DNA of 64,000 bases from an uncultured bacterium (GTDB lineage Bacteria > Verrucomicrobiota > Kiritimatiellia > RFP12 > UBA1067): NCBI GenBank assembly GCA_902799385.1, contig CADCAK010000001.1, positions 30,670-94,669 on the forward strand. Reading direction: 5' to 3'. Numbering within the stretch: the stretch's first letter is position 1; every line of letters begins with the position of its first letter. The translations under genes and the position numbers were made by a program. Positions 1-55,182 of the stretch are shown here, in pieces. Below the pieces are notes generated by a model. It had not been told where the DNA came from. It saw nothing but the letters and a program-made list of their open reading frames with translations, and searched no databases.

Positions 1-8
1 GGTGTGAT

Positions 9-1235
9 GTGTTTCATTTGACCAAGGGTGGTGATTTTTGGAAAAAGATTGAGAAGCAGATACGTGAATGTACATGTAAATTCTTACCGGTAATGACAAG
101 GGTCTCAAACAGTCGTGAAGGGGTTATGCAGGAGATTGCAGTAGCAAAGAGTGTGGGCAAGAGTCTAAATGACAACGATTTCATCATTCCTCTTCGGATT
201 GATCCAAATTTGGCATTTGGCGATTTTGATCCACGATTAATTACTTGTAATGGGGTTGATTTTACGACTTCCTGGGCAGAAGGTTTTGCTGAGCTGATAA
301 AAAATCTCAATGAACTTAAATGCCCGAAAAATGGAGATATGTCTGATGGTGCTGCAATCTATGAACGTACGATACTTGGAAAATTTAGTACTGTAGAGCG
401 TGAAGAAGTTTTTGACTCGAATTGGTTTTTGATGACAAATCTTCCTTTGACGATAAACTTTTGTCCTCTAAAAGGCGATGGGAAAATGGGCGAATGGGAT
501 TTTCCTGTGTTGCAGTACAAGAATCATTTTGTCTCGTTTGTAGATAGAGATGGGATGCCATCAGAAATATGTCAATTGCTGGTTGCTGATGTGACCCCGA
601 TTAAGTTCAACATCAAAGATTTCTTGAGGGCAAATAAAGATTGTGAGTTTATAAAATACGGATCATTTAAATGGTTGGTTATTGGACTTCTTGCAAAGGT
701 CTTTGATCTGAGCTTGCGAAATCAGTTCGGCGTCAGTACCAAGAAGATGTCGAATAGGCAAATGGCCTTTTTCTACCAAACAGGTGTTTTGGAAAAGAAC
801 AAAAAGGACCGAATAGCATTAGTTGGAAAACATAAAAGCTTGAAATGGCATTTTGCAGTTTCAGGGAATGTTAGACTGTTTCCCGCCCCTATGATTCAAT
901 TCAAGACGCATGTATTATTTTCAAAAAATGGATTTGATGTTAATCTTGATGACCATACTTCTCATGTCGCGAGACGGTCACTTGGTAAACGATGGTGGAA
1001 CAAAGAGTGGCATTCTAGATTAATGGCATTTGTGTCTACTTTGGTTAACTCACCTGATGGAGTAATAATGCTACAAGAAGGGGTTCAATTGCCTGTTGCG
1101 TTAAACTCCAAGCCTGTTCAATTTAAATCCAGAGTTGCATATGATGAGCCAGGGTCAGAGGCCAACTTGGAAGATGCCCTCATTGATGATGTGGATGATG
1201 AGTTAATGACAACGGAATCTGAGGAGGATGATTAA
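9..1235 (+). CDS. 5'-truncated gene; C-terminal end of a TIR-like domain followed by an APAZ-like domain (partner of short pAgo; SPARTA-type TIR-APAZ)
   Basis: ORF runs off the window start. N-terminal visible part (KFLPVMTRVSNSREGVMQEIAVAK..FIIPLRID) resembles the distal helices/strands of a TIR domain, followed by ~350 aa. It overlaps by 8 nt and is translationally coupled to a MID-PIWI short Argonaute gene, the canonical SPARTA arrangement. Confidence 0.5.
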   Translation: MFHLTKGGDFWKKIEKQIRECTCKFLPVMTRVSNSREGVMQEIAVAKSVGKSLNDNDFIIPLRIDPNLAFGDFDPRLITCNGVDFTTSWAEGFAELIKNLNELKCPKNGDMSDGAAIYERTILGKFSTVEREEVFDSNWFLMTNLPLTINFCPLKGDGKMGEWDFPVLQYKNHFVSFVDRDGMPSEICQLLVADVTPIKFNIKDFLRANKDCEFIKYGSFKWLVIGLLAKVFDLSLRNQFGVSTKKMSNRQMAFFYQTGVLEKNKKDRIALVGKHKSLKWHFAVSGNVRLFPAPMIQFKTHVLFSKNGFDVNLDDHTSHVARRSLGKRWWNKEWHSRLMAFVSTLVNSPDGVIMLQEGVQLPVALNSKPVQFKSRVAYDEPGSEANLEDALIDDVDDELMTTESEEDD

Positions 1236-2769
1236 TATGTTATCACTTCCGATTGAGTACATTGAAGAGCCAAAGATTGTCTTTGGGCATGGACAGCGAA
1301 TGTGTGATCCGCGTGACGGATTGTCCTTCTTCGGTCCGATAGAGAATGGTCCGCTTGAGATAAGAAGCGGTGTCGTTGGTTCTAGCAATGCCTTAAGAAT
1401 ATTCAAGTCATATATTGAGAGAATTCGTAGGCCAGTTTATAATGCAAATACGATAACGAGGCCATTTTTCCCAGGTTTTGAATCTGTATTCAATTGTAAA
1501 TGGAATACAAACACGATTTTGTTTAAAGAAGTTACCAAAGAAAGTGTGATGGCCGCTTTGGCTCAGCAAAATAGGAACATTCGGACATATGATGCGGTAA
1601 CGCTTTTCTTGAACCCGATTCTTAGGGCGGGGGATGAAGATTCCAGTGTTAATATGTGGTTTGTTATTGTTCCAGATGAGATATATCAATACTGCCGCCC
1701 AAAATCAGCAGCGCCAAACGAATTAGAGCTTCGTAAACCGTTGCTGACTAAACGAGAAGCCAGTAAATTCGTGCCGGAGAATTGGCTTTTCGCTGAAATG
1801 CGGAAAGAGGATGAGTTGAAGCAGCTTGAGCAAAAAAAGTATTTGTATGACGCCCAATTCCATGATCAGTTTAAGGCACGATTGTTAGAGCGGCAAATAC
1901 CTACGCAAATTATACGCGAAAGCACGTTGGATTGGCAGAACTATGTGAATTCAAAGGGAAAGCCAATCAGAAACTATTCTGCAATTGAAGGTCATCTGGC
2001 TTGGACGTTATCCACGACTGTATATTACAAGGCAGGTGGTAAGCCTTGGCAGCTTTCAGATGTGAGACCAGGTGTGTGCTATCTAGGCCTTGTATATAAG
2101 AAATATGAGTATTCGGCCAACGAGCGTTATGCATGCTGCGCGGCACAGATGTTTTTAAATAATGGCGACGGCACTATTTTTAAGGGTGAGCTTGGCCCAT
2201 GGTACAATCCTAAATCTGGGGAATTTCATCTGCAGACGAAAGCGGCTAGGTCATTATTGCAAAAAGCGGTTGAGTCATATCGTGAAACGACTGGGAATTA
2301 TCCCAAAGAATTATTTATACATGCGCGAACCCATTTCAACAACGAAGAATGGTCGGCATTTTTGGACGTCGTTCCCACAGGGACAAGAATCGTTGGCATT
2401 ACCATAGACCCGAAACCGATATTAAAGTTATATAGGTTGGATAGTCGATATCCAATTATGCGAGGGATGTTACTTAAGCATGATGAGAGGCGTGCGTTGT
2501 TATGGACGAAGGGGTTTGTTCCAAGAATCCAAACCGCATTGGGCTTGGAAACACCGTCGCCATTAGATATTCGAATTGACAAGGGAGATGCCGATATCGA
2601 TGTAGTTGTCCGAGATATACTTGCATTAACGAAATTGAATTATAATGCTTGTTTGTATGGTGATGGTTTGCCTGTGACTTTGCGTTTTGCCGATAAGATT
2701 GGGAATATCCTCACGGCAACGGCGGAGCAAACCACTTGCCCTCCCTTGTCATTCAAATTTTACATCTAA
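1228..2769 (+). CDS. short prokaryotic Argonaute (MID + catalytically inactive PIWI)
   Basis: 513 aa. MID-like nucleotide pocket region (..TVYYKAGGKPWQL..). PIWI C-terminus (..GDGLPVTLRFADKIGNILTA) resembles pAgo C-terminal anchoring motifs. No obvious DEDX tetrad. Start overlaps the upstream APAZ gene stop. Confidence 0.6.
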   Translation: MINMLSLPIEYIEEPKIVFGHGQRMCDPRDGLSFFGPIENGPLEIRSGVVGSSNALRIFKSYIERIRRPVYNANTITRPFFPGFESVFNCKWNTNTILFKEVTKESVMAALAQQNRNIRTYDAVTLFLNPILRAGDEDSSVNMWFVIVPDEIYQYCRPKSAAPNELELRKPLLTKREASKFVPENWLFAEMRKEDELKQLEQKKYLYDAQFHDQFKARLLERQIPTQIIRESTLDWQNYVNSKGKPIRNYSAIEGHLAWTLSTTVYYKAGGKPWQLSDVRPGVCYLGLVYKKYEYSANERYACCAAQMFLNNGDGTIFKGELGPWYNPKSGEFHLQTKAARSLLQKAVESYRETTGNYPKELFIHARTHFNNEEWSAFLDVVPTGTRIVGITIDPKPILKLYRLDSRYPIMRGMLLKHDERRALLWTKGFVPRIQTALGLETPSPLDIRIDKGDADIDVVVRDILALTKLNYNACLYGDGLPVTLRFADKIGNILTATAEQTTCPPLSFKFYI

Positions 2770-2778
2770 GGTGCTGCC

Positions 2779-4035
2779 ATGATGAATAGCTCATATAGGA
2801 TGACTGAAGTTGGGCTTCTCCCTGAGGATTGGGATGCAAAGCGGTTTTCAGAGTGCTTCACTCTGGTTCGGAATAACACTTATGCTCGTGAGTGCCTGAC
2901 CGATCATCCCGGTTCGGTGGCGAATGTCCATTATGGAGACGTGCTGATCAAGTACGGAGCCGTTCTTGACTTCGCGAAGAATGCTGTGCCTTACCTTAAG
3001 TCCGATGTGAAACCGAATAAGGATATGCTGAGAGATGGGGATCTGGTCTTTGCCGATACGGCGGAGGACGAGGCGGTTGGTAAGGCTGTTGAGGTACAGG
3101 GGTTGAAGTCTCGCATGGCGGTTGCGGGATTACATACTGTCGCAAGCCGCCCTCATGATGGTTTGTTTGCGCAACGGTATCTTGGCTATTACATCAATTC
3201 TGCAGCTTACCACAACCAGTTGCTGCCTTTGATCACTGGCACGAAAGTTTCATCCGTTTCTAGGGCAGGTTTTCTGGCAACATACGTGGCCATACCGCCA
3301 AAGAGTGAGCAGCGGCGGATAGCGGGGGCGTTGTCGGATGTCGATGAGTTGATTTCGGCGTTGGGGAAACTCATTGAGAAAAAGCGCAACATCAAGACCG
3401 GCGCGATGCAAGAACTGCTCACCGGCAAAACCCGCCTCCCCGGCTTCGGTGGCAAGTGGGTGGAGAAGAGGTTGGGTGATTGGGGGATGCTTATTCGAGA
3501 AACAGAGAATCCTCTGGAGTTCCCTGATAAACTTTTTGTTGAATATAGTATGCCCGCTTTTGATGCGGGGAAGACACCACAAATAGTGATTGGCAAAAGC
3601 ATGTTAAGTAGTCGCACAAAGATACATGGTGAGGTTCTTTTATTCAACAAGCTAAATGTTCGACAGCGACGAATTTGGCATGTTGAATTATGCCCTGATA
3701 ATGCGATTTGCTCATCGGAGTTTCTACCTTACTATTCTGACACCATCGACCTTCGGCTGCTAGCTTATGCGCTTGACACAGAACAAAGTACTAAACATTT
3801 TATTGATGTGTCTAAAGGCACATCAAACAGCCAAAAACGCATATCTCCGCAAGAGTTTGAAGATTTTAGAGTGATGTTGCCCCCCACTCTCCCCGAGCAG
3901 CGCGCGATTGCGGCGGTGCTAACAGACATCGACGCGGAGATCGCGGCGCTTGAGGCCGACCGTGCGAAATACGAGCGCATCAAATCCGGCATGATGCAGG
4001 AACTGTTGACGGGCAAGACGAGATTGAAGCCATGA
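2779..4035 (+). CDS. hsdS: type I restriction-modification specificity subunit HsdS
   Basis: Two target-recognition halves, each ending in the conserved HsdS linker EQRRIA..L..D..I..L....K.(A)MQELLTGKTRL (present twice). Confidence 0.9.
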   Translation: MMNSSYRMTEVGLLPEDWDAKRFSECFTLVRNNTYARECLTDHPGSVANVHYGDVLIKYGAVLDFAKNAVPYLKSDVKPNKDMLRDGDLVFADTAEDEAVGKAVEVQGLKSRMAVAGLHTVASRPHDGLFAQRYLGYYINSAAYHNQLLPLITGTKVSSVSRAGFLATYVAIPPKSEQRRIAGALSDVDELISALGKLIEKKRNIKTGAMQELLTGKTRLPGFGGKWVEKRLGDWGMLIRETENPLEFPDKLFVEYSMPAFDAGKTPQIVIGKSMLSSRTKIHGEVLLFNKLNVRQRRIWHVELCPDNAICSSEFLPYYSDTIDLRLLAYALDTEQSTKHFIDVSKGTSNSQKRISPQEFEDFRVMLPPTLPEQRAIAAVLTDIDAEIAALEADRAKYERIKSGMMQELLTGKTRLKP

Positions 4036-5327
4036 TTGATGTGCAAAATAGCGAAGTGAGGCAGGAGGTGAAGCACCACATGGGGCGGCGGTGCTTCAAC
4101 TGGGATTATTCCTCACGCTGCATCTACATGATCACGACCACTCTTGCTGACAGGTCGCGGCCTGTTTTGGGGCAGGTTGTCGGCGAGGGCGAGGAATGGC
4201 GGGTCGAGCCGAGCGAGATTGGGCTGATTGTCGAGCAATGCTGGCGCGAGATTCCGCGGCAGTGGCCGGGGGTTGAGATAATCGAGAGCCAGCTGATGCC
4301 AGAGCACTTCCACGGCATTATCTTTGTGAAAGAGCAGCAGACGAAAAAGCTTGGCAATATCATCGGGAGCTTCAAGTCGAAAAGCACGAGCCGCGCAGGG
4401 GTGGTGGGGTTGTGGGCGCCTGGGTATGTTGACTTGATTCTCTTTCGCGCGGGGCAGCTTGAGAAGATGATCGCCTATATCCGCGATAACCCGCGGCGGC
4501 TTGGCATAAAGTTGACACACCCTGAGCTTTTCAAGGTAGCGCGAGATATTGAGATAGACTTGGGCACATACGCCCAAGCGCAGAACCGCGCGCGCCCAAG
4601 CGTAGGACATGCAAGTGGCGAAGCGCAGAACCGCCCGCGTCAAAGCGCAGAACCTAGCGTCGGTGTTATTCCCTCTTGGCGCGGCCCGTCTAAGGGCCAT
4701 TTTATGGCGATTGGCAGCCACTTTCTTTTGGCGCGGCCGATTATTTGCCAGATTCAATGCTCGCGCTCTTTCTTCGCCTACAAGCGCCGCCGGTTGCCGG
4801 GCGGTTGGCAAATCTGCCGCGATTCCGCCGGCAAGCCGATTGTTGAGAAATCAACGCCTGAATTCGAGGAAAAGGCGACCGCCGCCATGCGCGCGGCGGC
4901 GCAGGGCGCGGTATTGCTGAGCCCATGCATCAGCCATGGCGAGCGCGAGATCGCCCGCCGAGCCTTTGAGTCAGGGCACCGCGTGATAACATTGCAGAAC
5001 AAAGGCTTTTCGCCGCTCTACAAACCGGGCGGCAAGCTCTTCGAGACGTGCGCAGCGGGCAACTTGTTGATGCTCGCTCCGATTGGCTGGCCGTATGTGC
5101 CGGGCGAGAAAGCGATGACGCGCCATGAGGCGCAGGTCTTAAATCGCATTGCCCAGCTCATAGCCGATGACGGCGCGGTTGAAATCGACTACAAAGGCGT
5201 TGTGCTGAGCGGCATCGACGAGGCGGTTGCGCAAGCAGTGGCGGGGGTGGACTTCGCCGCACGCGGCGAGGAACTTGGGCGCACGCGCCCAAGCGCAGGA
5301 CAGAACCGCGCACGCGGCGAAATCTAG
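4032..5327 (+). CDS. RayT/IS200-like Y1 (HUH) transposase-domain protein with ~265-aa C-terminal extension
   Basis: N-terminal 165 aa match the COG1943/Y1_Tnp pattern: HuH motif (MPEHFHGIIFV) and catalytic Tyr region (LWAPGYVDLILF...IAYIRDNP). Start overlaps the hsdS stop (ATGA). The C-terminal region is non-repetitive and protein-like but unassigned; a DprA/SLOG-like Rossmann domain is possible but speculative. Confidence 0.55.
   Translation: MIDVQNSEVRQEVKHHMGRRCFNWDYSSRCIYMITTTLADRSRPVLGQVVGEGEEWRVEPSEIGLIVEQCWREIPRQWPGVEIIESQLMPEHFHGIIFVKEQQTKKLGNIIGSFKSKSTSRAGVVGLWAPGYVDLILFRAGQLEKMIAYIRDNPRRLGIKLTHPELFKVARDIEIDLGTYAQAQNRARPSVGHASGEAQNRPRQSAEPSVGVIPSWRGPSKGHFMAIGSHFLLARPIICQIQCSRSFFAYKRRRLPGGWQICRDSAGKPIVEKSTPEFEEKATAAMRAAAQGAVLLSPCISHGEREIARRAFESGHRVITLQNKGFSPLYKPGGKLFETCAAGNLLMLAPIGWPYVPGEKAMTRHEAQVLNRIAQLIADDGAVEIDYKGVVLSGIDEAVAQAVAGVDFAARGEELGRTRPSAGQNRARGEI
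4571..4659. repeat. REP-like GC-rich imperfect repeats (consensus CGCCCAAGCGCAGAACCGCGC), several copies
   Basis: Copies at 4571-4593, 4594-4607 (partial), 4618-4639 and 4641-4659, inside the 3' half of the RayT-like ORF. Confidence 0.6.
5286..5316. repeat. additional copy of the REP-like CGCCCAAGCGCAG(GAC)AGAACCGCGC repeat just upstream of hsdR
   Basis: Same motif as the 4571-4659 repeats. Confidence 0.55.
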
Positions 5328-5346
5328 GAAGGAAGGATCTAGGGAT

Positions 5347-8300
5347 ATGGAAAACAATAAGGTTGAAGGCGAGGTTTTGCGTCCGAGCGCGAGCGCTGGG
5401 GTTGCCCCCGAGCGAGCGGTTCAAGATCGCATCATTGAGCTTCTGAGAACAAAGCTTGGCTATGAGTATCTTGGCAATTTGTCGGAGCGCGAGAACACCT
5501 GTCTCGATAGGCAGGCGCTGAAGGAGTTTCTTGTCGGCAAGCAGAAGCTCGAGCCTGCATACGCCGACCGTGCAATAGCCGAGCTCGGGAAGCGCATGGC
5601 ATGCCCGAGTCAGGCCGACCTCTATAGCGTAAACAAAGAAGTGTATCTGACGCTCAGATACCCGATGCCGGTCGCCACCGAGCCGGGCAAGCCGATGAAA
5701 CAGGTTTATTTCATCGACTGGCAGCATCCGCTCGAAAACAACTTCTCCATAGCCGAGGAAGTGACGGTAAGACGGCAGATCGCGGCAAACGGCCATCGCC
5801 GGCCTGATGTCGTGATCTGGGTCAATGGCATTGCCCTTTGCGTGATCGAGCTAAAGAAGGCGAATGTGAGCGTGGCCGAGGGAATTCGCCAGAACTACCG
5901 CAATCAGCAAGAGGGGGAGATACCGGCGTTTTTTGCCGCGGCGCAGCTCTTGATGGCGGGCAATGAATCGGAAGGGCTCAAGTATGCGACTACGCTTACG
6001 CCCGAGAAGTACTGGTTGAAGTGGAAAGAGCCGTGTGGCAATCCGTGCGCAGCGCCGAGGTGGGGAAAGTCGGAGATAAAGCCGCTTGTCGATCGTCTGT
6101 TTGCGCAGATGCTCGACAAGGAGCGGTTGCTCGCCTTTATACACGATGGCGTTGTGTTTGACGGTGGCGTTAAGAAGGTGATGCGGCCCGCGCAGTTTTT
6201 CGCGCTGGAGGCGGCGAAGCCGCGTATCATGCGCAAGGAGTCGGGCATCATCTGGCATTCGCAGGGCTCGGGCAAGTCGCTTACGATGGTGTGGCTCGCG
6301 CAGTGGATCAAGGAGCATCGGTCTGATGCGCGGGTGGTGATAATCACCGACCGCGACGAACTCGACAAGCAGATCACAAACGGCTTCAAGGAGGCCGGCG
6401 AGAAGCCATATCGCGCGACAAGCGGCGCCGACTTGATAGCAACATTGAATGGGTCTCGCGAGCGGCTGATCACAACTTTGATTCACAAATTTGGCGCGAA
6501 CGGGCCAAAGGAGAAGCTTGATGCCCGAGAGCGCAGACTGCGGGGCGAAAGGTCGGTTGCGGTTTACCTGAAGGAACTTGCCGACAAGTTGCCGCCAGGT
6601 TTCAAGGCGAAGGGCGATATCTTTGTTTTCGTCGACGAGTGCCATCGTACGCAAGGCGGCGTGATGAATCTTGCCATGAAGAAGATCATGGGCCCGGACG
6701 TGATGCTGATCGGCTTTACGGGGACGCCGCTTCTTAAGAGCGAGAAAGGCGCGCTTACGAGCTATGCCAATTTTGGGCCGTTCATCCATACCTACAAATT
6801 CGACGAGGCGGTAGAAGATGGCGTCGTGCTTGATCTGCGCTACGAGGCGCGCGACATCGAGCAGAACCTTGCCGAAGACGTGACATTTGACTCAATCTTC
6901 GAGCGCAAAACCAAGAACCTTCTTCCCGCCAAGAAGGAAGAGTTGAAGAAGCGATGGGCGAGGATGCAGAATCTCTTTTCGGCGAAAGAGCGCGTACAGC
7001 GCATCGTCACCGACATCTGCATGGACATGGGGATCAAGCCCGCGCTGCGCGAAGGGTGGGGCAATGCAATGCTGGTTTGCGAGTCGGTTTACCAGGCCTA
7101 TCGTTTCTGGGCGATGTTCAGCGACGTGCTCTCGCCGCTCAAGGACAAATGCGCCGTTGTCACAAGCTACGGCGGCGACGAGCCCGGTCTTTCCGAGGCG
7201 TTCACCGGCGAGCAGCTTACGGAAGCCGAGTACAAGCACAGGATGAATCTTGCCATGCGCGGCGACAAGACACCAGAGGATTTCGAGGAGTGGGCGAAGA
7301 AGGAGTTTGTCGAACACCCGGCGAAGATGAAGCTGCTTATCGTGGTCGACAAGCTGCTGACCGGCTTTGACGCGCCGCCCGCAACCTATCTCTACATCGA
7401 CAAGAAGATGGAAGACCACAATCTCTTCCAGGCGATTTGCCGCGTCAACAGGCTCAACGGCGAAAAGAAACGCTATGGCTACATAATCGACTACAAGCAT
7501 CTTTTCGAAAGCATAAGGGGCGCGGTCGAAGACTACACCAACGGCGCGTTCAAGAACTTCGAAAAAGAAGATGTCGAGGGGCTCCTCAAGGGCCGGCTTG
7601 AAGAAGGTCGCAAGGCGCTTGAAGCGGCTCTTGAACGGTGCGATATTCTTTCGGAACCGGTACTGCCGCCGAAGGGTCTCGACGAATATTGCGATTACTT
7701 CCTCGCCAATGACGGGGATTTGCAGCAGCGTGAAGATTTCTACCAGGCTTGCATCGCCGCGGTAAGGGCTTGGAGCGACATCGCGCAGGAAACTGACGAG
7801 GCCGGCTACTCCCCCGCCGAGGCGGCTGCGCTAAAGGAGAAGGTGCGCAACTACGACATGCTGCGCGAGGCGATCATGAAGCGAGCCGGCGATTTCGTGG
7901 ACCTCAAGCTCTACGATGCCGAGATGCGATCGCTTCTCGACAATTTCGTCACGGCCAAGCATGCGTTGAAACTCGCCGACCTCGAGGAGCTTTCGTTTCT
8001 CGATCTGATAAAAATCGACAAAGACAACGGAGGTTCGGTTGATTCCGACGTTGAGTCCGATGTCGGCGGCGAGAGAGGTGTTGCCGAAACGCTTGTGGCT
8101 AACGTCAGACGCTACATCTTCAGAAAGAAAGAGACCAATCCAGCCGAGTACCGCAAGTTCTCGGAACGCATCAACAGGCTTCTCGAAGACTACCGCAAGG
8201 AGAAGATCGAATACGGAAAGCTACTCGCGGAAATCGCCAAGATGGGCAAAGAACTGAAAGGCGATTCGACTGCTGCCGATCCGCGGTTAGACACAGAGGC

Positions 8301-8544
8301 CAAGCGAAGCCTCTGCGACAACCTGGGCGGCGATGCTGACCTTGCGCTCAAGGTCTTCGAGGCCGTTGGCGCAAGCGCCAAGCCCGGCTTTCGGAGGAAT
8401 GCCATACGGCGCAGGAAAGTCGAGATGGCCATCGAGGACGCCTTGCAGGGAACTGATTTCAACCCGCTTGCCGTCTACCAGATAGTGGAACACCAAAGTG
8501 AGTTCGACGCAGACTCCTACATGAGCGATGACCCTTGGATGTAG
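5347..8544 (+). CDS. hsdR: type I restriction enzyme R subunit HsdR
   Basis: N-terminal PD-(D/E)xK nuclease region (VIELKKANVSVAEGIRQNYRNQ), SF2 helicase motif I (GSGKSLTMVWLAQ) and DEAH-like motif II (VFVDECHRTQ). Start chosen at M41 of the track ORF, with an AGGAAGGA RBS. Confidence 0.9.
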   Translation: MENNKVEGEVLRPSASAGVAPERAVQDRIIELLRTKLGYEYLGNLSERENTCLDRQALKEFLVGKQKLEPAYADRAIAELGKRMACPSQADLYSVNKEVYLTLRYPMPVATEPGKPMKQVYFIDWQHPLENNFSIAEEVTVRRQIAANGHRRPDVVIWVNGIALCVIELKKANVSVAEGIRQNYRNQQEGEIPAFFAAAQLLMAGNESEGLKYATTLTPEKYWLKWKEPCGNPCAAPRWGKSEIKPLVDRLFAQMLDKERLLAFIHDGVVFDGGVKKVMRPAQFFALEAAKPRIMRKESGIIWHSQGSGKSLTMVWLAQWIKEHRSDARVVIITDRDELDKQITNGFKEAGEKPYRATSGADLIATLNGSRERLITTLIHKFGANGPKEKLDARERRLRGERSVAVYLKELADKLPPGFKAKGDIFVFVDECHRTQGGVMNLAMKKIMGPDVMLIGFTGTPLLKSEKGALTSYANFGPFIHTYKFDEAVEDGVVLDLRYEARDIEQNLAEDVTFDSIFERKTKNLLPAKKEELKKRWARMQNLFSAKERVQRIVTDICMDMGIKPALREGWGNAMLVCESVYQAYRFWAMFSDVLSPLKDKCAVVTSYGGDEPGLSEAFTGEQLTEAEYKHRMNLAMRGDKTPEDFEEWAKKEFVEHPAKMKLLIVVDKLLTGFDAPPATYLYIDKKMEDHNLFQAICRVNRLNGEKKRYGYIIDYKHLFESIRGAVEDYTNGAFKNFEKEDVEGLLKGRLEEGRKALEAALERCDILSEPVLPPKGLDEYCDYFLANDGDLQQREDFYQACIAAVRAWSDIAQETDEAGYSPAEAAALKEKVRNYDMLREAIMKRAGDFVDLKLYDAEMRSLLDNFVTAKHALKLADLEELSFLDLIKIDKDNGGSVDSDVESDVGGERGVAETLVANVRRYIFRKKETNPAEYRKFSERINRLLEDYRKEKIEYGKLLAEIAKMGKELKGDSTAADPRLDTEAKRSLCDNLGGDADLALKVFEAVGASAKPGFRRNAIRRRKVEMAIEDALQGTDFNPLAVYQIVEHQSEFDADSYMSDDPWM

Positions 8545-8548
8545 TGTC

Positions 8549-9256
8549 ATGACTATTGCCGGAATACAGATTGAAGTCGAGCGAAAGAAGATCAAGCACA
8601 CGCATCTTGCCGTCTATCCGCCGGATGCTAGGGTACATGTCTCTGCGCCAGATGATCTTTCCGACCGCGATTTGAGAAGTTTTCTTGCATCCAAGATTGG
8701 CTGGATACGCGACCAGCGGAAGACTGTTCTTTGCCAGCCTCGCCAGGCGCGCCGGGAGTATGTGAGCGGAGAGAGCATTTATTGCCTTGGCCGCAGGTAT
8801 AAACTATTGGTTGTCGTGGAAGATCGTTATGCGACGGAAAAGATGACGTGGGGCGGCAACAAGCTGTCGTTGTACGTGCGGGAGGGCGCTTCACGAGGGC
8901 ATAAGGAGAGGATCGTCGAATCATGGCAGAAGGCGATGTTGGGTGAGTCTCTTGCGGGCAAGATGAAAGGATGGTGCAGAAAGTTGAAGCTTGCTCTTCC
9001 AGAAATCGAAATAAGAAAGATGAAGACCCGGTGGGCGAGTTGTCTTCAGAAACGCGGCAAGATCGTTTTCAACGCCGCGCTTGGAAGAGTGCCCGCAAGA
9101 TGCATTGAGTATGTGGTCGTACATGAGCTGACGCATTTCGAGGTGTCGAACCACTCCAGAGCGTTTGTAGAGCTTATGGACAGGCGATTGCCGCGCTGGA
9201 GGATCTTGCGGAAAGAACTTAATGATTTTATCGCCATGCCGATGGAGGAGGTATAA
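8549..9256 (+). CDS. DUF45/YgjP-like (M48/WLM-like) zinc metallo-hydrolase, commonly linked to hsdR
   Basis: C-terminal HExxH-containing motif IEYVVVHELTHFEVSNHSRAFVELM and the WASC motif (KTRWASC). Located immediately downstream of hsdR. Confidence 0.8.
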   Translation: MTIAGIQIEVERKKIKHTHLAVYPPDARVHVSAPDDLSDRDLRSFLASKIGWIRDQRKTVLCQPRQARREYVSGESIYCLGRRYKLLVVVEDRYATEKMTWGGNKLSLYVREGASRGHKERIVESWQKAMLGESLAGKMKGWCRKLKLALPEIEIRKMKTRWASCLQKRGKIVFNAALGRVPARCIEYVVVHELTHFEVSNHSRAFVELMDRRLPRWRILRKELNDFIAMPMEEV

Positions 9257-9257
9257 T

Positions 9258-10019
9258 ATGGCCAAGAAGCGGGAAAGCAATTTCAAGAAGAATGGAGTTT
9301 CAAGCGAACTCCTGCCGCGCGAGCAGATGGAGCGTGCGGCGAGTCCGCACGACCTAAAGGACGAGGCCGTTCTTGCGATACTGCTCAAGACAGGTGCGCC
9401 TGGCTGTGACGTCTTGGAACTCGCAAGGCGGCTCATCCGGGCGTTTGGTTGCATTCAAGACCTTGTAACCGCCGATTGGCGTACGCTGGTCGCAAAGATA
9501 TCCGACTACAACAAAAAGAACCCAGAAGCTCCCATCAAGGGTATTGGAAAAGTCAAGGCGCTTGAGCTGGCTGCAGCGTTTGAACTCGGGTATCGCCGTC
9601 TTCGCGTTAAGCCTGACGATCTCAAGAAGATGCGTGTCGCAACCGCAGACGACGCATACGAAGTGTTCAAGTTCATTGCCCAGGAGGGCGACGTTCTGGA
9701 GAACTTCTGGGTATTGCCTTTGACGGCGAAGCGAGTTCCGATCTGTGAGCCGATCAGAATTGCACGAGGGCAAGCCAACACGTCATATGTGATGCCGCGA
9801 GATGTCTTCCGAGAGGCCATCAAATGGGATGCCCACTGCATAATGGTGGCGCACAATCATCCAAGCGGAGACCACACTCCGTCAGAAGGCGACATCGAAA
9901 CGACGCGGCAGCTGATGGCGATGTCCAAAGACCTCGGCATTCCGCTTCTTGATCACTTGGTTGTCTCGTCCTTAGGCTATTCCTCGATACGAGACTACAT
10001 AAGGCGAGGCTCAGTCTAG
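9258..10019 (+). CDS. radC: RadC-like JAB/MPN domain protein
   Basis: JAMM motif HNHPSGDHTPSEGDIETTRQL....GIPLLDHLVV and an HhH-like N-terminus. GGAGGAGG RBS. Start at M13 of the track ORF. Confidence 0.85.
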   Translation: MAKKRESNFKKNGVSSELLPREQMERAASPHDLKDEAVLAILLKTGAPGCDVLELARRLIRAFGCIQDLVTADWRTLVAKISDYNKKNPEAPIKGIGKVKALELAAAFELGYRRLRVKPDDLKKMRVATADDAYEVFKFIAQEGDVLENFWVLPLTAKRVPICEPIRIARGQANTSYVMPRDVFREAIKWDAHCIMVAHNHPSGDHTPSEGDIETTRQLMAMSKDLGIPLLDHLVVSSLGYSSIRDYIRRGSV

Positions 10020-10046
10020 TCTCAACAGGGAGTCAACAGGGTCAGA

Positions 10047-10091
10047 TTTGCTGCGGAGTCATCTGTCTGACCCTGTTGGTTCCGGTACTTC
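10047..10091 (+). terminator. inverted repeat (13-bp stem CAACAGGGTCAGA / TCTGACCCTGTTG, 19-nt loop) downstream of radC
   Basis: Perfect 13-bp inverted repeat right after the radC stop. No strong U-tract, so it may be a terminator or a processing hairpin. Confidence 0.3.
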
Positions 10092-11249: not shown

Positions 11250-11492
11250 TTGCAATCCGTTTACAAGCAGTCGTACGAACTACAACGACCGATTGTTGCC
11301 GATATGTGCGCAAACGCCGATAACGTCAGCGAAGATGAATTGGCGCATTGTTTTGATCGCGTGCTGGACATTTCATATACAGACTACGGCATGAGGCTTT
11401 TCAACAAATTGTGCAGGGCTTTCAAAGCAAGATATCCAGTTTGTGTGACGGATTATATAAAAATCCAAAAGGAGATTTATGGGGACGATTAA
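11250..11492 (+). CDS. small hypothetical protein (80 aa from TTG; 62 aa if from ATG 11304)
   Basis: ORF with protein-like composition directly upstream of the AlbA_2 gene. No recognisable domain. Confidence 0.3.
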   Translation: MQSVYKQSYELQRPIVADMCANADNVSEDELAHCFDRVLDISYTDYGMRLFNKLCRAFKARYPVCVTDYIKIQKEIYGDD

Positions 11493-11631
11493 GAATGTCT
11501 TGTGCCCACTATCTGAAGGTCGGCAGATTGGCGGCGCGAGACAAGGCGTATCATCCGCGGTCGTAGGTCGATTGCCTGTCCGTGCGAGGATGGAATGTGG
11601 CATAATTTCGACAAAAGCGCAAGGAGTGGGG

Positions 11632-13134
11632 ATGAAGCGAGACGAAAACCAGACGGTCGAGTACAAGGAGTCCTGGCACGAGAAGTACCTGGAGTGGATC
11701 TGCGGCTACGCGAACGCCAAGGGCGGGACGCTGTACATCGGCATAGAGGACGGAACCAAGAAGCCCGTCGGCGTCAGGAATCCCAACAAGCTGATGGAGG
11801 ACATCCCCAACTCCATACGCAACACGATGGGCATCGTGGCCGACGTCGCTTTGCTCAAGAAGCAGGGCAAGGATGTTATACGTATTAAGGTTGCGGCAAG
11901 CGCCTTCCCCGTCAGCTATCAGGGACGCTTCCACTATCGGACGGGATCGGTCAAGATGCTGCTGACAGGCCCGGCCCTTACGCAGTTCCTGATGGAGAAG
12001 TCAGGACAGCAATGGGACTGCATATCATGCTTCGGAGGACATCGTGCGTCCGATTTCACTTTTATTGCGCTCAAGAACCTCTATGAAAAGGCGAGTGGGT
12101 CGAAATTGACAAAGGAGGACATGCTTTCCTTTGGCCTTGTCACAGAGGCGGGCGTCATGACCAATACTGGCGCGCTGCTGGCCGACGAGTCGCCGATTCG
12201 ACATTCCCGCGTTTTCTGCACACGCTGGAACGGACTCGACATGACGGCAGGCGTTATGGATGCTGCCGACGACCAGGAATATAGTGGCGGACTTCTACAG
12301 TTGCTCAAATATGCAGAGGACTTTGTCCGCCTCCACTCCCGCCGCGCGTGGCACAAGCGTCCGACAGACCGCGTGAACTTCCGCGAGTATCCCGAACGCT
12401 CTGTTCAGGAGATGCTCATCAACGGACTCGTTCACCGCGACTACCTTGAGACAGGTAGCGAAGTCCATGTTGATATCTTCGACGATCGAATGGAAATAAC
12501 CTCCCCAGGCGGTATGCCGGGCGACCGCAAGGTTCAGGAGTATCCGAACATTCGGCGGATTCCGTCGCGTCGCCGCAATAAGTGCCTTGCGGATATGTTT
12601 GAACGGCTCGATCTCATGGAACGCAAGGGCAGCGGGTTCAAGAAGCTCAACGAGGACTACGAGAAACTGTCGGTCAACCTTGGGAAACGCATGCCCGTCC
12701 TTGAGTCCGAGAGTGACTACTTTCGCGTTACACTGCCGAATCTTCTCTATGGATTCACAGACGAACAGCTCGTCGCAGCCGTCGACAACTCGTCATACGG
12801 AGTGCCGAAGAGTGAGACGCTATCACTCGCGACCCACCATGATACCCACCATGATGCCCACCATGATACCCACCATGATGTGTTGCCGCTTAAACCAAAT
12901 GAAACCAAGCTTTTGAAGGTGCTGTCATTACAAAGAGAACTCAGCGCCACCGACTTGCGTAAGGCTATGAAACTTAGGAATGCGCCGGACTTTAGAGAGC
13001 GCTATCTCCGGCCGCTTTCTCGCGACGGATACATTGAGTTCACATTGCCGAACGCTAAGAAATCCAAACTTCAGAAGTATCGGCTGACGGACAAAGGACG
13101 TGCCGCGCTGTCGGCAAATACGTATAAGTCATAA
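11632..13134 (+). CDS. AlbA_2 (Schlafen-like) + HATPase_c_4 ATP-binding transcriptional regulator-like protein
   Basis: N-terminal AlbA_2 motif ESWHEKYLEWICGYANAKGGTLYIGIEDGTKKPVGV. C-terminal HATPase_c_4 region LINGLVHRDY..GSEVHVDIFDDRMEITSPGG. C-terminal HTH. AAGGAG RBS before ATG 11632. Confidence 0.8.
   Translation: MKRDENQTVEYKESWHEKYLEWICGYANAKGGTLYIGIEDGTKKPVGVRNPNKLMEDIPNSIRNTMGIVADVALLKKQGKDVIRIKVAASAFPVSYQGRFHYRTGSVKMLLTGPALTQFLMEKSGQQWDCISCFGGHRASDFTFIALKNLYEKASGSKLTKEDMLSFGLVTEAGVMTNTGALLADESPIRHSRVFCTRWNGLDMTAGVMDAADDQEYSGGLLQLLKYAEDFVRLHSRRAWHKRPTDRVNFREYPERSVQEMLINGLVHRDYLETGSEVHVDIFDDRMEITSPGGMPGDRKVQEYPNIRRIPSRRRNKCLADMFERLDLMERKGSGFKKLNEDYEKLSVNLGKRMPVLESESDYFRVTLPNLLYGFTDEQLVAAVDNSSYGVPKSETLSLATHHDTHHDAHHDTHHDVLPLKPNETKLLKVLSLQRELSATDLRKAMKLRNAPDFRERYLRPLSRDGYIEFTLPNAKKSKLQKYRLTDKGRAALSANTYKS
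12833..12880 (+). repeat. 4 x 12-bp tandem repeat (CCCACCATGATR) encoding a His-rich HHDTHHDAHHDTHHD tract inside the AlbA_2 gene
   Basis: Direct reading of sequence. In frame, near the C-terminus. Confidence 0.75.
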
Positions 13135-14428: not shown

Positions 14429-15820
14429 TGTAGTTATCAAAAGTGGACTATCGTGGCCTCGTCGGTGTTGTCCTTGGGGTGTTTCCTGTCCGTGAACAGA
14501 ACGACGGGGTATGTGCCGTGCTTCGGGTAGTCCTTGACGATTGAGCGCGAGCCGTCGGTGTGCGAACACAGATAGGCCCGGGACCCGACGGGGGCGTTGA
14601 CCGTAACCTCGTCGAGGCCAATCCTGACTCTTCGACCTTTTCCGACGACAGTCGGCTCGATGACTGACCAGACGTATTCCCACCATGGCTCCGCTGGTTT
14701 GGGCCTAAGCTTGTTCCGGCCATCCCTGACCGCCTTGTCCCACGCCTCCATGCCCGTCATCCCGGTTTCGCGGTTGAGGTCGTGCTCCGAGTTCCACACG
14801 ATGAGAGGCCATATCTCGGAGTTGGCCTTGTCGAGATCTGCAGGGACGCCGATCCTTGCGAAATGGGCGGGAAGCCTGTCTTGCCATATCTGGTGCCGTC
14901 GTTCGATCTTCCCCTTTGACTCTGGGGAGTTTGCGAAGACCAGCGTGACCCCGTAGAACTTAAGCCGAGACGCGAGGCGTGTCAGGTGCCTGCCGTCCTG
15001 GCTCTTGAAGAAGGAAGCCTGGTCGACGTATATCTGCAGCGGCAGCCCGTAGCGCTCGAACGACTCCTTGAGGAAGTCGATGTATGCCGCCAGGTTCTCG
15101 TGGGCGTAGACCTTGCCTCCGACCTGTCTGCGGCTTGCGTCGTCAAGCATGTTCAGCATTGGAAGGCATTCGGATCCTTCCCCGAACCACCTGTACGGTG
15201 TCGCGTCGAGCTGCCACAGCTCGCCGACGTTGAGCCTCTGCCAGCGCCTCGTGTGGCACGTAGGCCTGTCCTTCGGCTTCGGGCGCGAGAGCCCCTGCGA
15301 GATGGCCCACAGCCTGACCTGCGCACGGTCCAGCCTCGCGGCGAGTCCAAGCCTGACGGCCTCGGATGCGGCAAAGGCGAAGGAGGCTGGCGGCCTCGTG
15401 GAAAGGGCCTGGCGGAGGAACGCCTTCAGCTCCTCCGTCCAAGGCGCCTTGTGTGCCCCGCCAGAGCTCGAAGGCATCCAGTCCTCGCCGCGGCGGATGG
15501 CGGAGAGCCACTCCTTGCGGATGGCGAACAGGCGGCTCCGCGAAAGACCGAGTTCGCTGCACGCCTGTTCCGATGTCATCGATCCGGCATTGAACGTTTC
15601 AAGCACATGCCTCAACAGCGGCAGTGCAATTCTCTGGTGTAGTTGCTTGCTCATGATAGCGAGCATGGTACAGGATTTTTGGCCGGAGGGGAAGGGGAGT
15701 GCGCTCGGCCCTTCGGGCCGCCCCTTCGGGGACGCTTCTCCCCTTCCCCTCCGGCCATCCCAGCAATATGCCAAACATCAAAGTAAAGCCTAAAGGCAGA
15801 GTCCTGTTTTGATTTCACCC
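14429..15820 (-). mobile_element. IS481-like insertion sequence (rve DDE transposase) with imperfect terminal inverted repeats
   Basis: Ends GTGTAGTTATCAAAAGTGGACT (14429-14450) and GAGTCCTGTTTTGATTTCACC (15798-15818) are imperfect inverted repeats (about 14/20). A single transposase ORF lies between them. Confidence 0.55.
14437..15774 (-). CDS. DDE transposase (integrase core/rve domain, N-terminal HTH), IS481-like
   Basis: W..D.T(x).... DDASRR...D....SPESKGKIER: D, D and the rve E. N-terminal HTH (TSEQACSELGLSRSRLFAIRKEW). Confidence 0.85.
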   Translation of the reverse strand: MAYCWDGRRGRGEASPKGRPEGPSALPFPSGQKSCTMLAIMSKQLHQRIALPLLRHVLETFNAGSMTSEQACSELGLSRSRLFAIRKEWLSAIRRGEDWMPSSSGGAHKAPWTEELKAFLRQALSTRPPASFAFAASEAVRLGLAARLDRAQVRLWAISQGLSRPKPKDRPTCHTRRWQRLNVGELWQLDATPYRWFGEGSECLPMLNMLDDASRRQVGGKVYAHENLAAYIDFLKESFERYGLPLQIYVDQASFFKSQDGRHLTRLASRLKFYGVTLVFANSPESKGKIERRHQIWQDRLPAHFARIGVPADLDKANSEIWPLIVWNSEHDLNRETGMTGMEAWDKAVRDGRNKLRPKPAEPWWEYVWSVIEPTVVGKGRRVRIGLDEVTVNAPVGSRAYLCSHTDGSRSIVKDYPKHGTYPVVLFTDRKHPKDNTDEATIVHF

Positions 15821-16046: not shown

Positions 16047-17039
16047 ATGAAGAAGATCGAATACATTCCGAAGTTTACGGTTAGCGGCAAGGCGATGCGG
16101 CTCATTATGGAGATTGCCGCCGCATTAGAACGATACAAAATCGTGATGGAGGGGTCTGATGGCGTGCGGCTCAGAAAGCTCAATCACATTCGTACGATTC
16201 GTGGGACGACGGCCATCGAGGGAAACACGCTGACCGAGGAGCAGATCACAGCCGTGCTGGCGGGGAAGCGCGTGGTGGCAACGCGGCGCGAAATTGACGA
16301 AGTGAAAGGTGCCCATCGCGCCTATGCGAAGATTGAGTCGTTCAATGCGTATTCGGTTAAGGATCTCTTAAAGGCGCACGCGTTGATGACGAAGGGGCTT
16401 GTTGAGAAGCCGGGCGAATTCCGCAAGTGTGCCGTGGGGGTGATGAATGGCGCGGGTGAAGTCGTGCATCTTGCTCCGCGTTTTGAACTCGTTCCTGGGC
16501 TGATGGATGATTTGTTTGCGTGGCTTGCCGATTCAGAAGAGCCAGTGCTTATAAAGAGTTGCGTCTTTCACTGGTGCTTCGAGGACATTCATCCATTTCC
16601 AGACGGCAATGGGCGCACTGGACGCCTTTGGCAGACCGTGTTGCTCGGCTCGTGGAATCCGCTCTTTTACGGCGCGCCAATTGAGAACATCGTATGGGCG
16701 CATCAGTCGGAGTATTATGCAGCGATACGGGCGGTTGAAGAGCACGACATGGACATCGCTCCGTTCATTGAGTTCATGCTTGACAAGATTCTTCGGACAC
16801 TGAAGGCCAAGGGTGAAGCGTATGAGGCAGGGGAAGAAAGTAGGGTTAAGAGTAGGGATAAAAGTAGGGATAAGGTGTTGTGCCTTTTGCGCAGGCAGCC
16901 TGATTTGACCCAAGCAGAGCTTGCTAATGCGTTGGGACTGACGGTAAAAGCGATTGAGAAGATCATTCGTCAGTTGAGAGATGCCAATCTCATAAAGCGC
17001 GAGGGCGGCAAGAAATTCGGACGCTGGATTGTGGCGTAG
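16047..17039 (+). CDS. fic: Fic family protein (class II, N-terminal inhibitory helix) with C-terminal HTH
   Basis: Fic motif HPFPDGNGRTGR. Intramolecular inhibitory (S/T)xxxE(G/N) motif TAIEGN near the N-terminus. C-terminal winged-HTH (QAELANALGLTVKAIEKIIRQL). Confidence 0.9.
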   Translation: MKKIEYIPKFTVSGKAMRLIMEIAAALERYKIVMEGSDGVRLRKLNHIRTIRGTTAIEGNTLTEEQITAVLAGKRVVATRREIDEVKGAHRAYAKIESFNAYSVKDLLKAHALMTKGLVEKPGEFRKCAVGVMNGAGEVVHLAPRFELVPGLMDDLFAWLADSEEPVLIKSCVFHWCFEDIHPFPDGNGRTGRLWQTVLLGSWNPLFYGAPIENIVWAHQSEYYAAIRAVEEHDMDIAPFIEFMLDKILRTLKAKGEAYEAGEESRVKSRDKSRDKVLCLLRRQPDLTQAELANALGLTVKAIEKIIRQLRDANLIKREGGKKFGRWIVA

Positions 17040-53339: not shown

Positions 53340-55127
53340 TTAGCCAAGCGCGGCCTTGATTGCCTCAAGAGCCGCGTCTGGCGCGACGATCTGCATCTTC
53401 GACTTGTCCTCATCGCGGCGCTTGATCTCGACGCCGCCGTTGGCAAGCCCCTTCGCGCCGACGACGACGCGGACAGGGAAGCCGATCAGGTCGGCATCCT
53501 TGAACTTGACGCCGGGACGCTCCGCGCGGTCGTCGACGATTACGTCGATTCCGGCCGCCTCAAGCGCAGACTCGAGATCGTCTGCGACCTTCGTTACGTC
53601 TGGCTTGTCGGGATCGAGGTTCTCGACGATGACCTGGTACGGCGCGACAGACGCGGGCCAGATTATGCCGTCCTTGTCGTGGCATTGCTCGATGACCGCC
53701 TGGAGCGTGCGGGAAACGCCGACGCCGTAGCAGCCCATGATCATCACATGGTCTTCGAGCTTGTCGTTCTTGTAGACGGCGTTGAACGCGGCGGAATACT
53801 TCGTACCGAGCTTAAAGACCTGCCCGACTTCGATGCCGCGCTTGATTGCCATGGGCTTGCCGCACTTCGCGCAGATGTCGCCGTCCTTCACGATTACGAG
53901 ATCGGCGTAGTCCGCGTCCGCGATCTTCGCGTCGCGCGCGAGGTCAACGTTCTTGAGGTGGAAGTCGTCCTTGTTCGCGCCGACGATGCGTCCCTTCGCG
54001 CCCTTGAGCGCGATGTCAGCGACAATCCTGAGCGACGCGTCCGCAGGAGCGACGGGGCCGACGAAGCCCGCGTTCGCGCCGGTCGCCTTAAGGACGGTGC
54101 CGAAATCGGCAAGCGCGACGGACTTCGCGCCGAGGAAGCGCTTTAGCTTCACCTCGTTCACGTCGCGATCACCCTGAACGCACACCATAACCGGCTTGCC
54201 GTCGGCAACATAAACGAGAGACTTGACGAAACGGTCGGCGGGAAGGCCGAGGAAAGAGGCGACCTCTTCGATCGTCTTGGCGTTGGGCGTCGCGACCTCT
54301 TCGCAGGCGTCTCCGTTCCCCATTCCCGCTTCCCCGTTCCCCGTTCCCCATTCCCACCCCTCTAGCGACCGCTCGCGCGGCTCGCTTCGCTCGGGGGATA
54401 CGTTCCCCATCTTCCGTTCCGCCTTCTCGAGATTCGCAGCGTAGCCGCAGCCGTCGCAGAACGCGATGCCGTCTTCGCCAGCGTCGGCAAGGACGTGGAA
54501 CTCGTGCGTCATCGAATCGCCCATGTCGCCGCCGTCGGCCTGCACGGGAACGGCCTTGAGCCCGCAGCGCGCGTAGATGCGCTCGTAGGCGTGGTACATG
54601 TTCCAGTAGCTCTTGTCCGCGCCCTCGGCGTCAGTGTCGAAGGAGTAGGCGTCCTTCATGAGAAATTCCTTGGAGCGCATGAGCCCGAACCTCGGGCGCG
54701 TCTCGTCGCGGAACTTCCACTGGATCTGGTAGATCGTGACGGGCAGCTGGCGATAGGAGCTGACGAGCGACTTCGCGAGGTCGGTGAAGACCTCCTCGGC
54801 GGTGGGGCCGAGCGCGAACTCGTGCTCGCCTCTATCGCGGAGCTTGAACATGTTCGGGCCCATCGTGTCCCAGCGGCCCGTGGTGCGCCAGAGCTCGGCG
54901 GGCTGGAGTATCGGCGAGACGATTTCGAGCGCGCCCGCGCGGTCCATCTCATCGCGGACGATCTCCATGATTTTCTTGAGCGAGCGCATGCCGAGCGGCA
55001 GGTACGCGTAGAGCCCGCCCGCGACCTTGCGCGCGAGCCCCGCGCGCATCAGGAGCCTGTGAGAGTCGATTTCGGCGTCGCCGGGATTCTCCCGGAGCGT
55101 CTGTATGAGAGATTTCGTCCATTTCAT
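53340..55127 (-). CDS. proS: proline--tRNA ligase
   Basis: Class II aaRS motifs, C-terminal anticodon-binding domain. Contains a Gly/Asn/Glu-rich insertion WEWGTGNGEAGMGNGD from a GGGAAYGGGGAAC repeat at 54300-54360. Start at MKWTKSLIQTL. Confidence 0.9.
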   Translation of the reverse strand: MKWTKSLIQTLRENPGDAEIDSHRLLMRAGLARKVAGGLYAYLPLGMRSLKKIMEIVRDEMDRAGALEIVSPILQPAELWRTTGRWDTMGPNMFKLRDRGEHEFALGPTAEEVFTDLAKSLVSSYRQLPVTIYQIQWKFRDETRPRFGLMRSKEFLMKDAYSFDTDAEGADKSYWNMYHAYERIYARCGLKAVPVQADGGDMGDSMTHEFHVLADAGEDGIAFCDGCGYAANLEKAERKMGNVSPERSEPRERSLEGWEWGTGNGEAGMGNGDACEEVATPNAKTIEEVASFLGLPADRFVKSLVYVADGKPVMVCVQGDRDVNEVKLKRFLGAKSVALADFGTVLKATGANAGFVGPVAPADASLRIVADIALKGAKGRIVGANKDDFHLKNVDLARDAKIADADYADLVIVKDGDICAKCGKPMAIKRGIEVGQVFKLGTKYSAAFNAVYKNDKLEDHVMIMGCYGVGVSRTLQAVIEQCHDKDGIIWPASVAPYQVIVENLDPDKPDVTKVADDLESALEAAGIDVIVDDRAERPGVKFKDADLIGFPVRVVVGAKGLANGGVEIKRRDEDKSKMQIVAPDAALEAIKAALG

Positions 55128-55136
55128 GATGGGGAT

Positions 55137-55173: not shown

Positions 55174-55182
55174 TTACCGCGA

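Follow-up and report, generated by a model that had tools for sequence, protein, structure and literature searches.

A probable canonical SPARTA operon lodged among type I restriction-modification genes in an uncultured Kiritimatiellia bacterium

Introduction

What do two adjacent genes at the edge of a stretch of bacterial DNA encode when genes of a type I restriction-modification (R-M) system follow directly behind them, and does the pair belong to that system or only reside in it? The stretch, referred to here as the window, covers 64,000 nucleotides of an uncultured bacterium of the Kiritimatiellia (assembly GCA_902799385.1, contig CADCAK010000001.1, positions 30,670 to 94,669 of the forward strand), and the gene pair occupies its first 2,769 nucleotides. 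An earlier reading of the letters without database searches (the sequence-only reading) had proposed a SPARTA-like module, in which the end of a protein with TIR and APAZ domains is coupled to a short prokaryotic Argonaute (pAgo). Our analysis leads to the same assignment. It is highly probable (roughly 0.88) that the pair represents canonical SPARTA and falls into clade S2A, with a TIR-APAZ protein, a short Argonaute that is catalytically dead, and adjacent co-directional genes whose products probably assemble as a 1:1 heterodimer. Gene identity, architecture, conservation of functional residues, selection and genomic context were all read from the window and from related public contigs, which are cited by L numbers where they have to be told apart.

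Results

The effector protein combines TIR and APAZ domains

The first gene is cut by the window edge. Its frame is open from nucleotide 3 to the TAA at 1233-1235 (gene at 3..1235, +), giving 410 codons without an internal stop, which represent residues 37-446 of a 446-residue protein. In profile searches it matches the PADLOC model Aga_TIR-PNTD1-PNTD2 from position 34 to 436 of the model's 443 (E-value 4.5e-88), and Pfam TIR_2 from position 30 to 122 of 122 (1.9e-07; 32.0 bits, the cutoff being 28). The solved TIR-APAZ chains of BabSPARTA (8qlo_A, 1.7e-80), MapSPARTA (8fex_A, 2.8e-76) and CrtSPARTA (8ifk_A, 1.8e-74) are all recovered from the Protein Data Bank (PDB), with alignments that begin at chain residue 34-36. 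No SIR2 match was found for this protein in the Pfam and PADLOC searches. If the domain boundary is drawn as in MapTIR (residues 1-158; PMC10355822), the TIR part takes up approximately nucleotides 3-377 (+) and the APAZ part the remainder. The N-terminus of the effector does lie outside the window, as the sequence-only reading stated. That reading had judged the effector from its last ~60 residues only, which understates what can be seen, as some 100 TIR residues, the catalytic glutamate among them, are inside the window.

Judged from contigs of other samples that are 99.4-99.6% DNA-identical over window positions 1-3419 or 1-3451, the part of the effector beyond the edge amounts to 36 residues (108 nucleotides), which in those contigs read MGNQRISIFISHATPDD.... 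A full-length gene is found at L001:8659-9999, on a public metagenomic contig with 99.4% DNA identity. The 446-residue protein of the near-identical contigs opens directly with the beta-A strand of the TIR domain and carries neither an Mrr nor a SIR2 part. Upstream extension, made through these contigs, and profile searches, both of which the sequence-only reading had suggested as checks, agree on a plain TIR-APAZ protein rather than on a SIR2, nuclease or Mrr-TIR effector; indeed, every test proposed there came out in favour of SPARTA.

The catalytic TIR glutamate is encoded by the GAG codon at 132..134 (+). It is residue 44 of the partial protein and Glu80 of the full-length one, and was placed by a gap-free alignment to Glu77 of MapTIR-APAZ, which is also its equivalent in CrtTIR-APAZ; the E77A mutation abolishes NADase activity (PMC9097488). 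The aromatic residues that stack against the NAD and adenine in MapTIR, Phe45 and Tyr105 (PMC10355822), correspond to Phe48 and Phe108. The last 35 residues (1128..1232, +) make up an acidic tail with a computed Asp/Glu content of 43%; the reported range for such tails is 21-45%, and an autoinhibitory role has been demonstrated in BabSPARTA and MapSPARTA (PMC10899771). The tail is predicted to act here as an autoinhibitory plug of the nucleic-acid channel.

The Argonaute is short and lacks a complete catalytic tetrad

The second gene (1237..2769, +; 513 residues if translation began at another in-frame ATG, at 1228) encodes a 510-residue protein that aligns end to end with the 507-residue pAgo chains of the Crt, Map and Bab systems, with MID and PIWI domains only and without an N or PAZ domain. 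It matches PADLOC pAgo_I at 1.4e-186 (profile positions 3-493 of 493) and, over essentially its full length, CrtAgo (8ifk_B, 6.3e-208), MapAgo (8fex_B, 2.6e-206) and BabAgo (8qlo_B, 3.4e-203). What had been described from the sequence as a MID-PIWI Argonaute of about 510 residues thus has as its best matches the three SPARTA Argonautes of solved structure. It is 59% identical to MapAgo and belongs to a family of more than 3,250 homologues. The match scores of both proteins to their families are far beyond chance. A Pfam scan gave no Piwi or MID match for the Argonaute, because short pAgos diverge from the Pfam models; its identity as an Argonaute is settled by PADLOC, PDB and hhalign.

The residues that hold the guide are conserved. 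The codons of the MID 5′-phosphate and RNA-guide pocket lie at 1861..2031 (+). His209 (codon at 1861), Lys213 (1873), Gln224 (1906) and Lys265 (2029) of the 5′-phosphate pocket are identical to His207, Lys211, Gln222 and Lys263 of MapAgo, and the RNA-guide contacts Arg227 (1915) and Thr230 (1924) are identical to its Arg225 and Thr228. Arg154, which corresponds to MapAgo Arg152 and would contact the 5′ base, is encoded at 1696 (+), beyond that span. The roles of these residues were established for MapAgo (PMC10355822). The C-terminal residue, Ile510, is likewise the same as in MapAgo.

To place the positions of the catalytic DEDX tetrad we used the Argonaute of pTT27, TtAgo, in the translation of which Asp478, Glu512, Asp546 and Asp660 were verified, and aligned it to a profile of 19 SPARTA pAgo sequences. 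A profile was needed because a direct phmmer comparison of the two proteins aligned the C-terminal 50 residues only. In the hhalign alignment (probability 90%, E 1.4e-06) the four TtAgo residues fall on Val286 (2092-2094), His331 (2227-2229), Arg364 (2326-2328) and Asp486 (2692-2694), within 2092..2694 (+). The loop at the Glu position is uncertain by about 2 residues, and a Glu sits two residues upstream. The two core-strand Asp positions are unambiguously non-acidic (Val and Arg), and the tetrad is therefore incomplete. The slicer site is predicted to be catalytically dead, and the absence of a tetrad that had been noted from the sequence is borne out.

The two genes are probably one nucleotide apart

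The sequence-only reading had described a two-gene operon with an 8-nucleotide overlap. The genes are indeed adjacent and co-directional, whereas the overlap probably does not hold. As an open reading frame (ORF) feature it is real, running from the ATG at 1228 to the TAA ending at 1235, but no public record of the resulting 513-residue product was found by exact look-up, while the exact 510-residue product, starting at the ATG at 1237, is called on 14 public contigs. A Shine-Dalgarno-like GAGGAGG at 1221..1227 (+), read directly from the sequence and identified by its resemblance to the consensus, abuts the ATG at 1228 and lies 9 nucleotides ahead of that at 1237. In length, the N-termini of the closest relatives, at 86% and 77% identity, fit the 510-residue form. 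From these records, the ribosome-binding-site spacing and the relatives, the start is most likely the ATG at 1237, which would leave the genes 1 nucleotide apart (TAA-T-ATG). More distant SPARTA relatives overlap by 1, 4 or 8 nucleotides, so that tight translational coupling is a habit of the family whichever start holds.

Purifying selection acts on both genes

The Argonaute is 100% identical in protein sequence to that on 14 other contigs, and the TIR-APAZ protein differs from that of L001 at 3 of 410 residues. A more distant comparison is provided by L007, a Kiritimatiellaeota metagenome-assembled genome from a Hadza gut metagenome that was found in a genome scan and is 74% identical in DNA across the SPARTA pair. 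Between the two, TIR-APAZ has a ratio of non-synonymous to synonymous divergence (dN/dS) of ~0.10; for the Argonaute the proportion of non-synonymous differences (pN) is 0.074, with synonymous sites saturated. These values show purifying selection on both SPARTA genes, and the system is apparently intact.

The pair probably sits among the genes of a type I restriction-modification operon

The gene for the type I specificity subunit, hsdS (2779..4035, +; PADLOC Specificity_I 1.9e-67, Pfam Methylase_S), begins 9 nucleotides after the Argonaute stop codon. The restriction subunit gene hsdR follows at 5347..8544 (+; PADLOC REase_I 4e-292, NCBIfam hsdR 8.3e-142), and downstream of it are genes for a YgjP-like peptidase and RadC. 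While the window itself shows the downstream hsdS and hsdR only, the upstream genes are seen in L001-L004 and L007, where the order is hsdM, rhuM, TIR-APAZ, pAgo, hsdS, hsdR, all co-directional. L005 and L006 start in the gene just upstream of TIR-APAZ (rhuM in L005) and do not reach hsdM.

In L001-L004 the upstream genes encode, in order, a 581-residue methyltransferase-specificity fusion, a 762-residue HsdM (PADLOC MTase_I 2.6e-270) and a RhuM-family protein. The RhuM-family gene, at L001:7520-8596, is directly upstream of TIR-APAZ with a spacer of 62 nucleotides; it matches Pfam Virulence_RhuM and, at 3.3e-131, the PADLOC candidate defence family PDC-S05. Another RhuM gene is located close to a SPARTA of 66% identity whose context is different (L011:2478-3329). 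The operon opens with the gene for the 581-residue protein (L001:3485-5230), which joins an N6-methyltransferase domain to a type I specificity-like domain at the C-terminus (matches to PADLOC mad2, MTase_I and Specificity_I), and the locus may thus contain a further methyltransferase-specificity enzyme, a fused one, in addition to the classical HsdM, HsdS and HsdR. Just ahead of this gene, at L001:3436-3465, is a perfect sigma-70 consensus (TTGACA-18 nt-TATAAT, with an extended -10 TG). Upstream of the SPARTA genes no other strong promoter-like site was found. Scans for sigma-70 promoters and intrinsic terminators between the genes, which register consensus matches only, gave nothing above shuffle expectation.

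Between hsdS and hsdR there is an ORF of 431 residues (4032-5327, +) with a weakly RAYT/IS200-like N-terminal part (NCBIfam REP_Tyr_transpos 5.7e-08, under the cutoff; Pfam Y1_Tnp 0.016). GC-rich REP-like palindromes occur both within the ORF and behind it, one being CTTGGGCGC-AC-GCGCCCAAG at 5274-5293, and repeats are located at 4558-4657 and 5269-5334. The long ORF may in part be an artefact of reading through repeat DNA.

Genes for ProRS, a TonB-dependent receptor and an SNF2 helicase mark the window as chromosomal. Scans of the window for tRNA genes and Rfam families were empty, revealing no tRNA-linked integration site or known RNA element. The ProRS ORF (53340-55451, -) is listed with 703 residues; its homologues have ~571-593 residues and cover ~84% of it, so that translation probably starts further downstream than listed. 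This ProRS shares 83-85% identity with proteins named 'Kiritimatiellae bacterium', its best named relatives, and on this basis the host belongs to the Kiritimatiellia. Beyond the R-M genes, at 11479-13131 (+), is a gene for a 551-residue protein with Schlafen AlbA_2, HATPase_c_4 and Fic-like_C domains. It has a weak partial match (1.3e-10) to the PADLOC SIR2-APAZ model, which may reflect a common DNA-binding module rather than an APAZ domain. An ISNCY-family transposase (14437-15771, -) and a Fic protein (16047-17036) are encoded in the same island.

The SPARTA block has been exchanged between strains

The base composition of the SPARTA pair differs from that of its surroundings, with a GC content of ~41% against 59% in the rest of the window and ~55-58% in the flanks of L001. 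A similar contrast is present in L007 (40% for SPARTA, 56-60% around it). The low GC content points to acquisition from a low-GC donor.

Synonymous divergence (dS) of the window from L001 is 0.009 for pAgo and 0.008 for TIR-APAZ, against 0.256 for hsdR and 0.261 for RadC (compared over 5347-10061), which puts the SPARTA pair ~30-fold below the adjacent hsdR. L001 is 99.4% DNA-identical to window positions 1-3419. The 5′ half of hsdS, to approximately nucleotide 3420-3450, belongs to the shared block, and the 3′ half differs between haplotypes; this second, target-recognition half has been swapped, with three variants seen. On the other side of the block, rhuM is ~4% diverged between L001 and L005, compared with ~0.3% for SPARTA and the first half of hsdS, and halfway through that gene the identity collapses. 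These figures show that the block from the spacer between rhuM and TIR-APAZ to the middle of hsdS passed recently between strains whose flanks are older and diverged.

The region behind hsdS is also variable. Haplotype B (L005:5303-10574, L006:4482-9753) has an identical SPARTA pair and three extra genes between hsdS and the RAYT-like ORF, namely one for a 1227-residue NTPase of the Tmn/YobI type (PADLOC Tmn 2.3e-89) and two without known identity. The hsdS-hsdR gap is therefore a variable slot for defence genes. In haplotype A (L001-L004) the RAYT-like ORF is reduced to a remnant of 80 residues.

Discussion

How the system would work can be proposed from its Crt, Map and Bab homologues, from which complex formation, guide type, tetramerisation and NADase output are carried over. 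TIR-APAZ and pAgo would pair as a heterodimer. The MID pocket of the Argonaute would hold the 5′-phosphate of a small guide RNA that originates from strongly transcribed DNA of the invader, and pairing of the guide with complementary single-stranded DNA of the invader would expel the acidic tail and remodel the PIWI sensor loop. Dimerisation through the Argonautes and then TIR-mediated tetramerisation would follow, with the TIR domains stacking head to tail to create composite active sites, in which Glu80 would hydrolyse NAD(P)+ to ADP-ribose or its phosphate, ADPR(P), and nicotinamide. The cell would stall or die, and the spread of the plasmid or phage would be aborted. All the sequence features that this mechanism needs appear to be present, the steps themselves coming from the homologues.

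CrtSPARTA, MapSPARTA and BabSPARTA, which also belong to clade S2A (Koopal et al, 2022, PMC9097488; 8ifk, 8fex and 8qlo), have the same order of TIR-APAZ followed by pAgo and similar lengths, ~450 and 507 residues compared with 446 and 510 here. The catalytic Glu, the MID pocket, the RNA-guide contacts, the C-terminal Ile, the acidic tail and the lack of a complete DEDX tetrad are common to all. The differences lie in the host, which is a member of the Kiritimatiellia (PVC group) here and of the Bacteroidota, Bacillales or Proteobacteria in the others, and in the apparent embedding of the present operon in a type I R-M operon. Several observations weigh against the canonical assignment. The start of TIR-APAZ and everything upstream of it are known from near-identical contigs of other samples only. 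MapTIR Tyr105 is replaced by a Phe, though the position stays aromatic, and TIR-APAZ as a whole is only 37% identical to MapTIR-APAZ, so that guide preference and temperature optimum could differ. Lastly, the fourth tetrad position is an Asp, as in active Argonautes, where CrtSPARTA has an Asn, yet the two other Asp positions are occupied by Val and Arg.

Could the pair be another kind of short-pAgo system, or could its TIR domain, in the manner of Thoeris, produce a nucleotide signal that acts on a separate effector? SPARSA (SIR2-APAZ) and SPARDA (DREN nuclease-APAZ) likewise join a short, inactive pAgo sensor to an APAZ-fused effector that is activated by oligomerisation, and there is also a subclade with Mrr-TIR-APAZ. 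Weaker PADLOC matches were indeed obtained to REase-TIR-PNTD (2.7e-28) and, on the Argonaute, to a SIR2-PNTD-pAgo fusion model (1.5e-29), and in one relative (L016) a SIR2_2 gene comes after SPARTA. The effector domain here, however, is TIR and not SIR2 or a nuclease. The plain TIR-PNTD1-PNTD2 and pAgo_I models lead the other PADLOC models by ~60 orders of magnitude, and the 446-residue partner on the near-identical contigs begins with TIR, with the Mrr and SIR2 parts absent. As to a Thoeris-like arrangement, no ThsA-like effector adjoins the SPARTA pair in the window, where the next gene is hsdS, and the product of CrtTIR-APAZ is non-cyclic ADPR (PMC9097488). We consider any of these systems exceedingly improbable compared with canonical SPARTA. 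Scarcely more probable is that the pair is a non-functional remnant in this genome, in which an insertion or rearrangement has truly truncated the 5′ end of TIR-APAZ and left an orphan pAgo. The start of TIR-APAZ does lie outside the window, and the locus is prone to rearrangement, with its variable hsdS halves, the RAYT-like ORF with REP-like palindromes and the ISNCY transposase 11 kb downstream. On the other hand, all 410 codons inside the window are open and carry just the three substitutions relative to full-length genes elsewhere, the same Argonaute occurs on 14 contigs with a complete partner gene, and identity to those contigs reaches position 1 of the window, as expected of an arbitrary cut rather than of a junction.

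The relation to the surrounding R-M genes is the second question. SPARTA could be integrated with them in function or regulation, with one transcript, begun at a promoter ahead of the methyltransferase genes, supplying hsdS and hsdR by read-through of the SPARTA genes and the two systems defending the cell in a complementary or synergistic way. All the genes are co-directional and separated by short gaps (the 9 nucleotides between pAgo and hsdS in the window and the 62 between rhuM and TIR-APAZ in L001), promoter- or terminator-like sites between them do not rise above background, and the perfect sigma-70 site stands ahead of the first methyltransferase gene in L001. Two lineages with no more than 74% identity between their SPARTA DNA have the same gene order, the recently exchanged block unites SPARTA with the first half of hsdS, and HsdS was listed already in 2018 among the proteins enriched in pAgo neighbourhoods (PMC6299218). 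Against this, SPARTA is active by itself when transferred to Escherichia coli, and short pAgos have no specifically associated partner other than the APAZ protein (PMC9097488). Relatives at 55-68% identity are found outside type I R-M operons, a Tmn gene has been inserted into the same operon in haplotype B, and the scans for promoters and terminators register nothing more than consensus matches. That type I R-M operons harbour unrelated defence genes, such as TgvAB, DarTG2 and PrrC, is moreover a general hotspot phenomenon. Integration therefore seems unlikely to us, and it is about equally doubtful that SPARTA is exchanged as a single module with the RhuM/PDC-S05 gene and the target-recognition half of hsdS that comes first, all under the type I R-M promoter. 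The SPARTA pair, a horizontally acquired, low-GC and recently exchanged cassette, most likely provides an independent second layer of defence in a defence hotspot.

Embedding in type I R-M operons was also considered as a trait of a SPARTA subclade, and rejected, as none of seven relatives with 36-68% pAgo identity lies in such an operon. These seven loci (on contigs among L008, L009 and L011-L019) have other defence or mobile settings, which include a type II R-M system with a reverse transcriptase, a serine recombinase, SIR2_2, a Schlafen-type helicase and GmrSD/HNH genes. Defence genes embedded in type I R-M operons have been described in the form of TgvAB in VPI-2 of Vibrio cholerae (PMC11411939), DarTG2 in enteropathogenic E. 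coli (PMC12255303) and PrrC, and defence cassettes in such operons have been surveyed by 'guilt-by-embedding' (bioRxiv 10.1101/2024.01.29.577857). As also seems to be so here, these cassettes are self-contained and placed between hsd genes, on the same strand and in a strain-variable locus. The cargo in the present case is SPARTA with a RhuM/PDC-S05 gene, and it is placed between hsdM and hsdS. No paper naming SPARTA as cargo of a type I R-M operon was found in the literature searched, which is not proof of absence.

As a member of its family the system is an unremarkable addition of the plain TIR-APAZ type, of mild interest only for its embedding in R-M genes and the recent exchange of the cassette. 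SPARTA is already well characterised in mechanism and structure, the family counts thousands of members, and the exact pAgo sequence is already present in public metagenome assemblies. If the module reading were true after all, expression of the R-M specificity and restriction subunits would be physically tied to SPARTA in a composite, two-layer immune operon, with R-M acting on unmethylated DNA and SPARTA on highly transcribed multicopy invaders, and selection would act on the whole unit and not on SPARTA alone. What the locus does document is SPARTA in gut-associated Kiritimatiellia, in the PVC group, and it gives a clean example of SPARTA as cargo of a type I R-M operon, in an order that is conserved over two diverged lineages. 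The dS of ~0.01 in SPARTA compared with ~0.26 in hsdR shows that the cassette and the adjoining half of hsdS move between strains by recombination, and the locus could thus be used to study the turnover of defence cassettes inside R-M operons.

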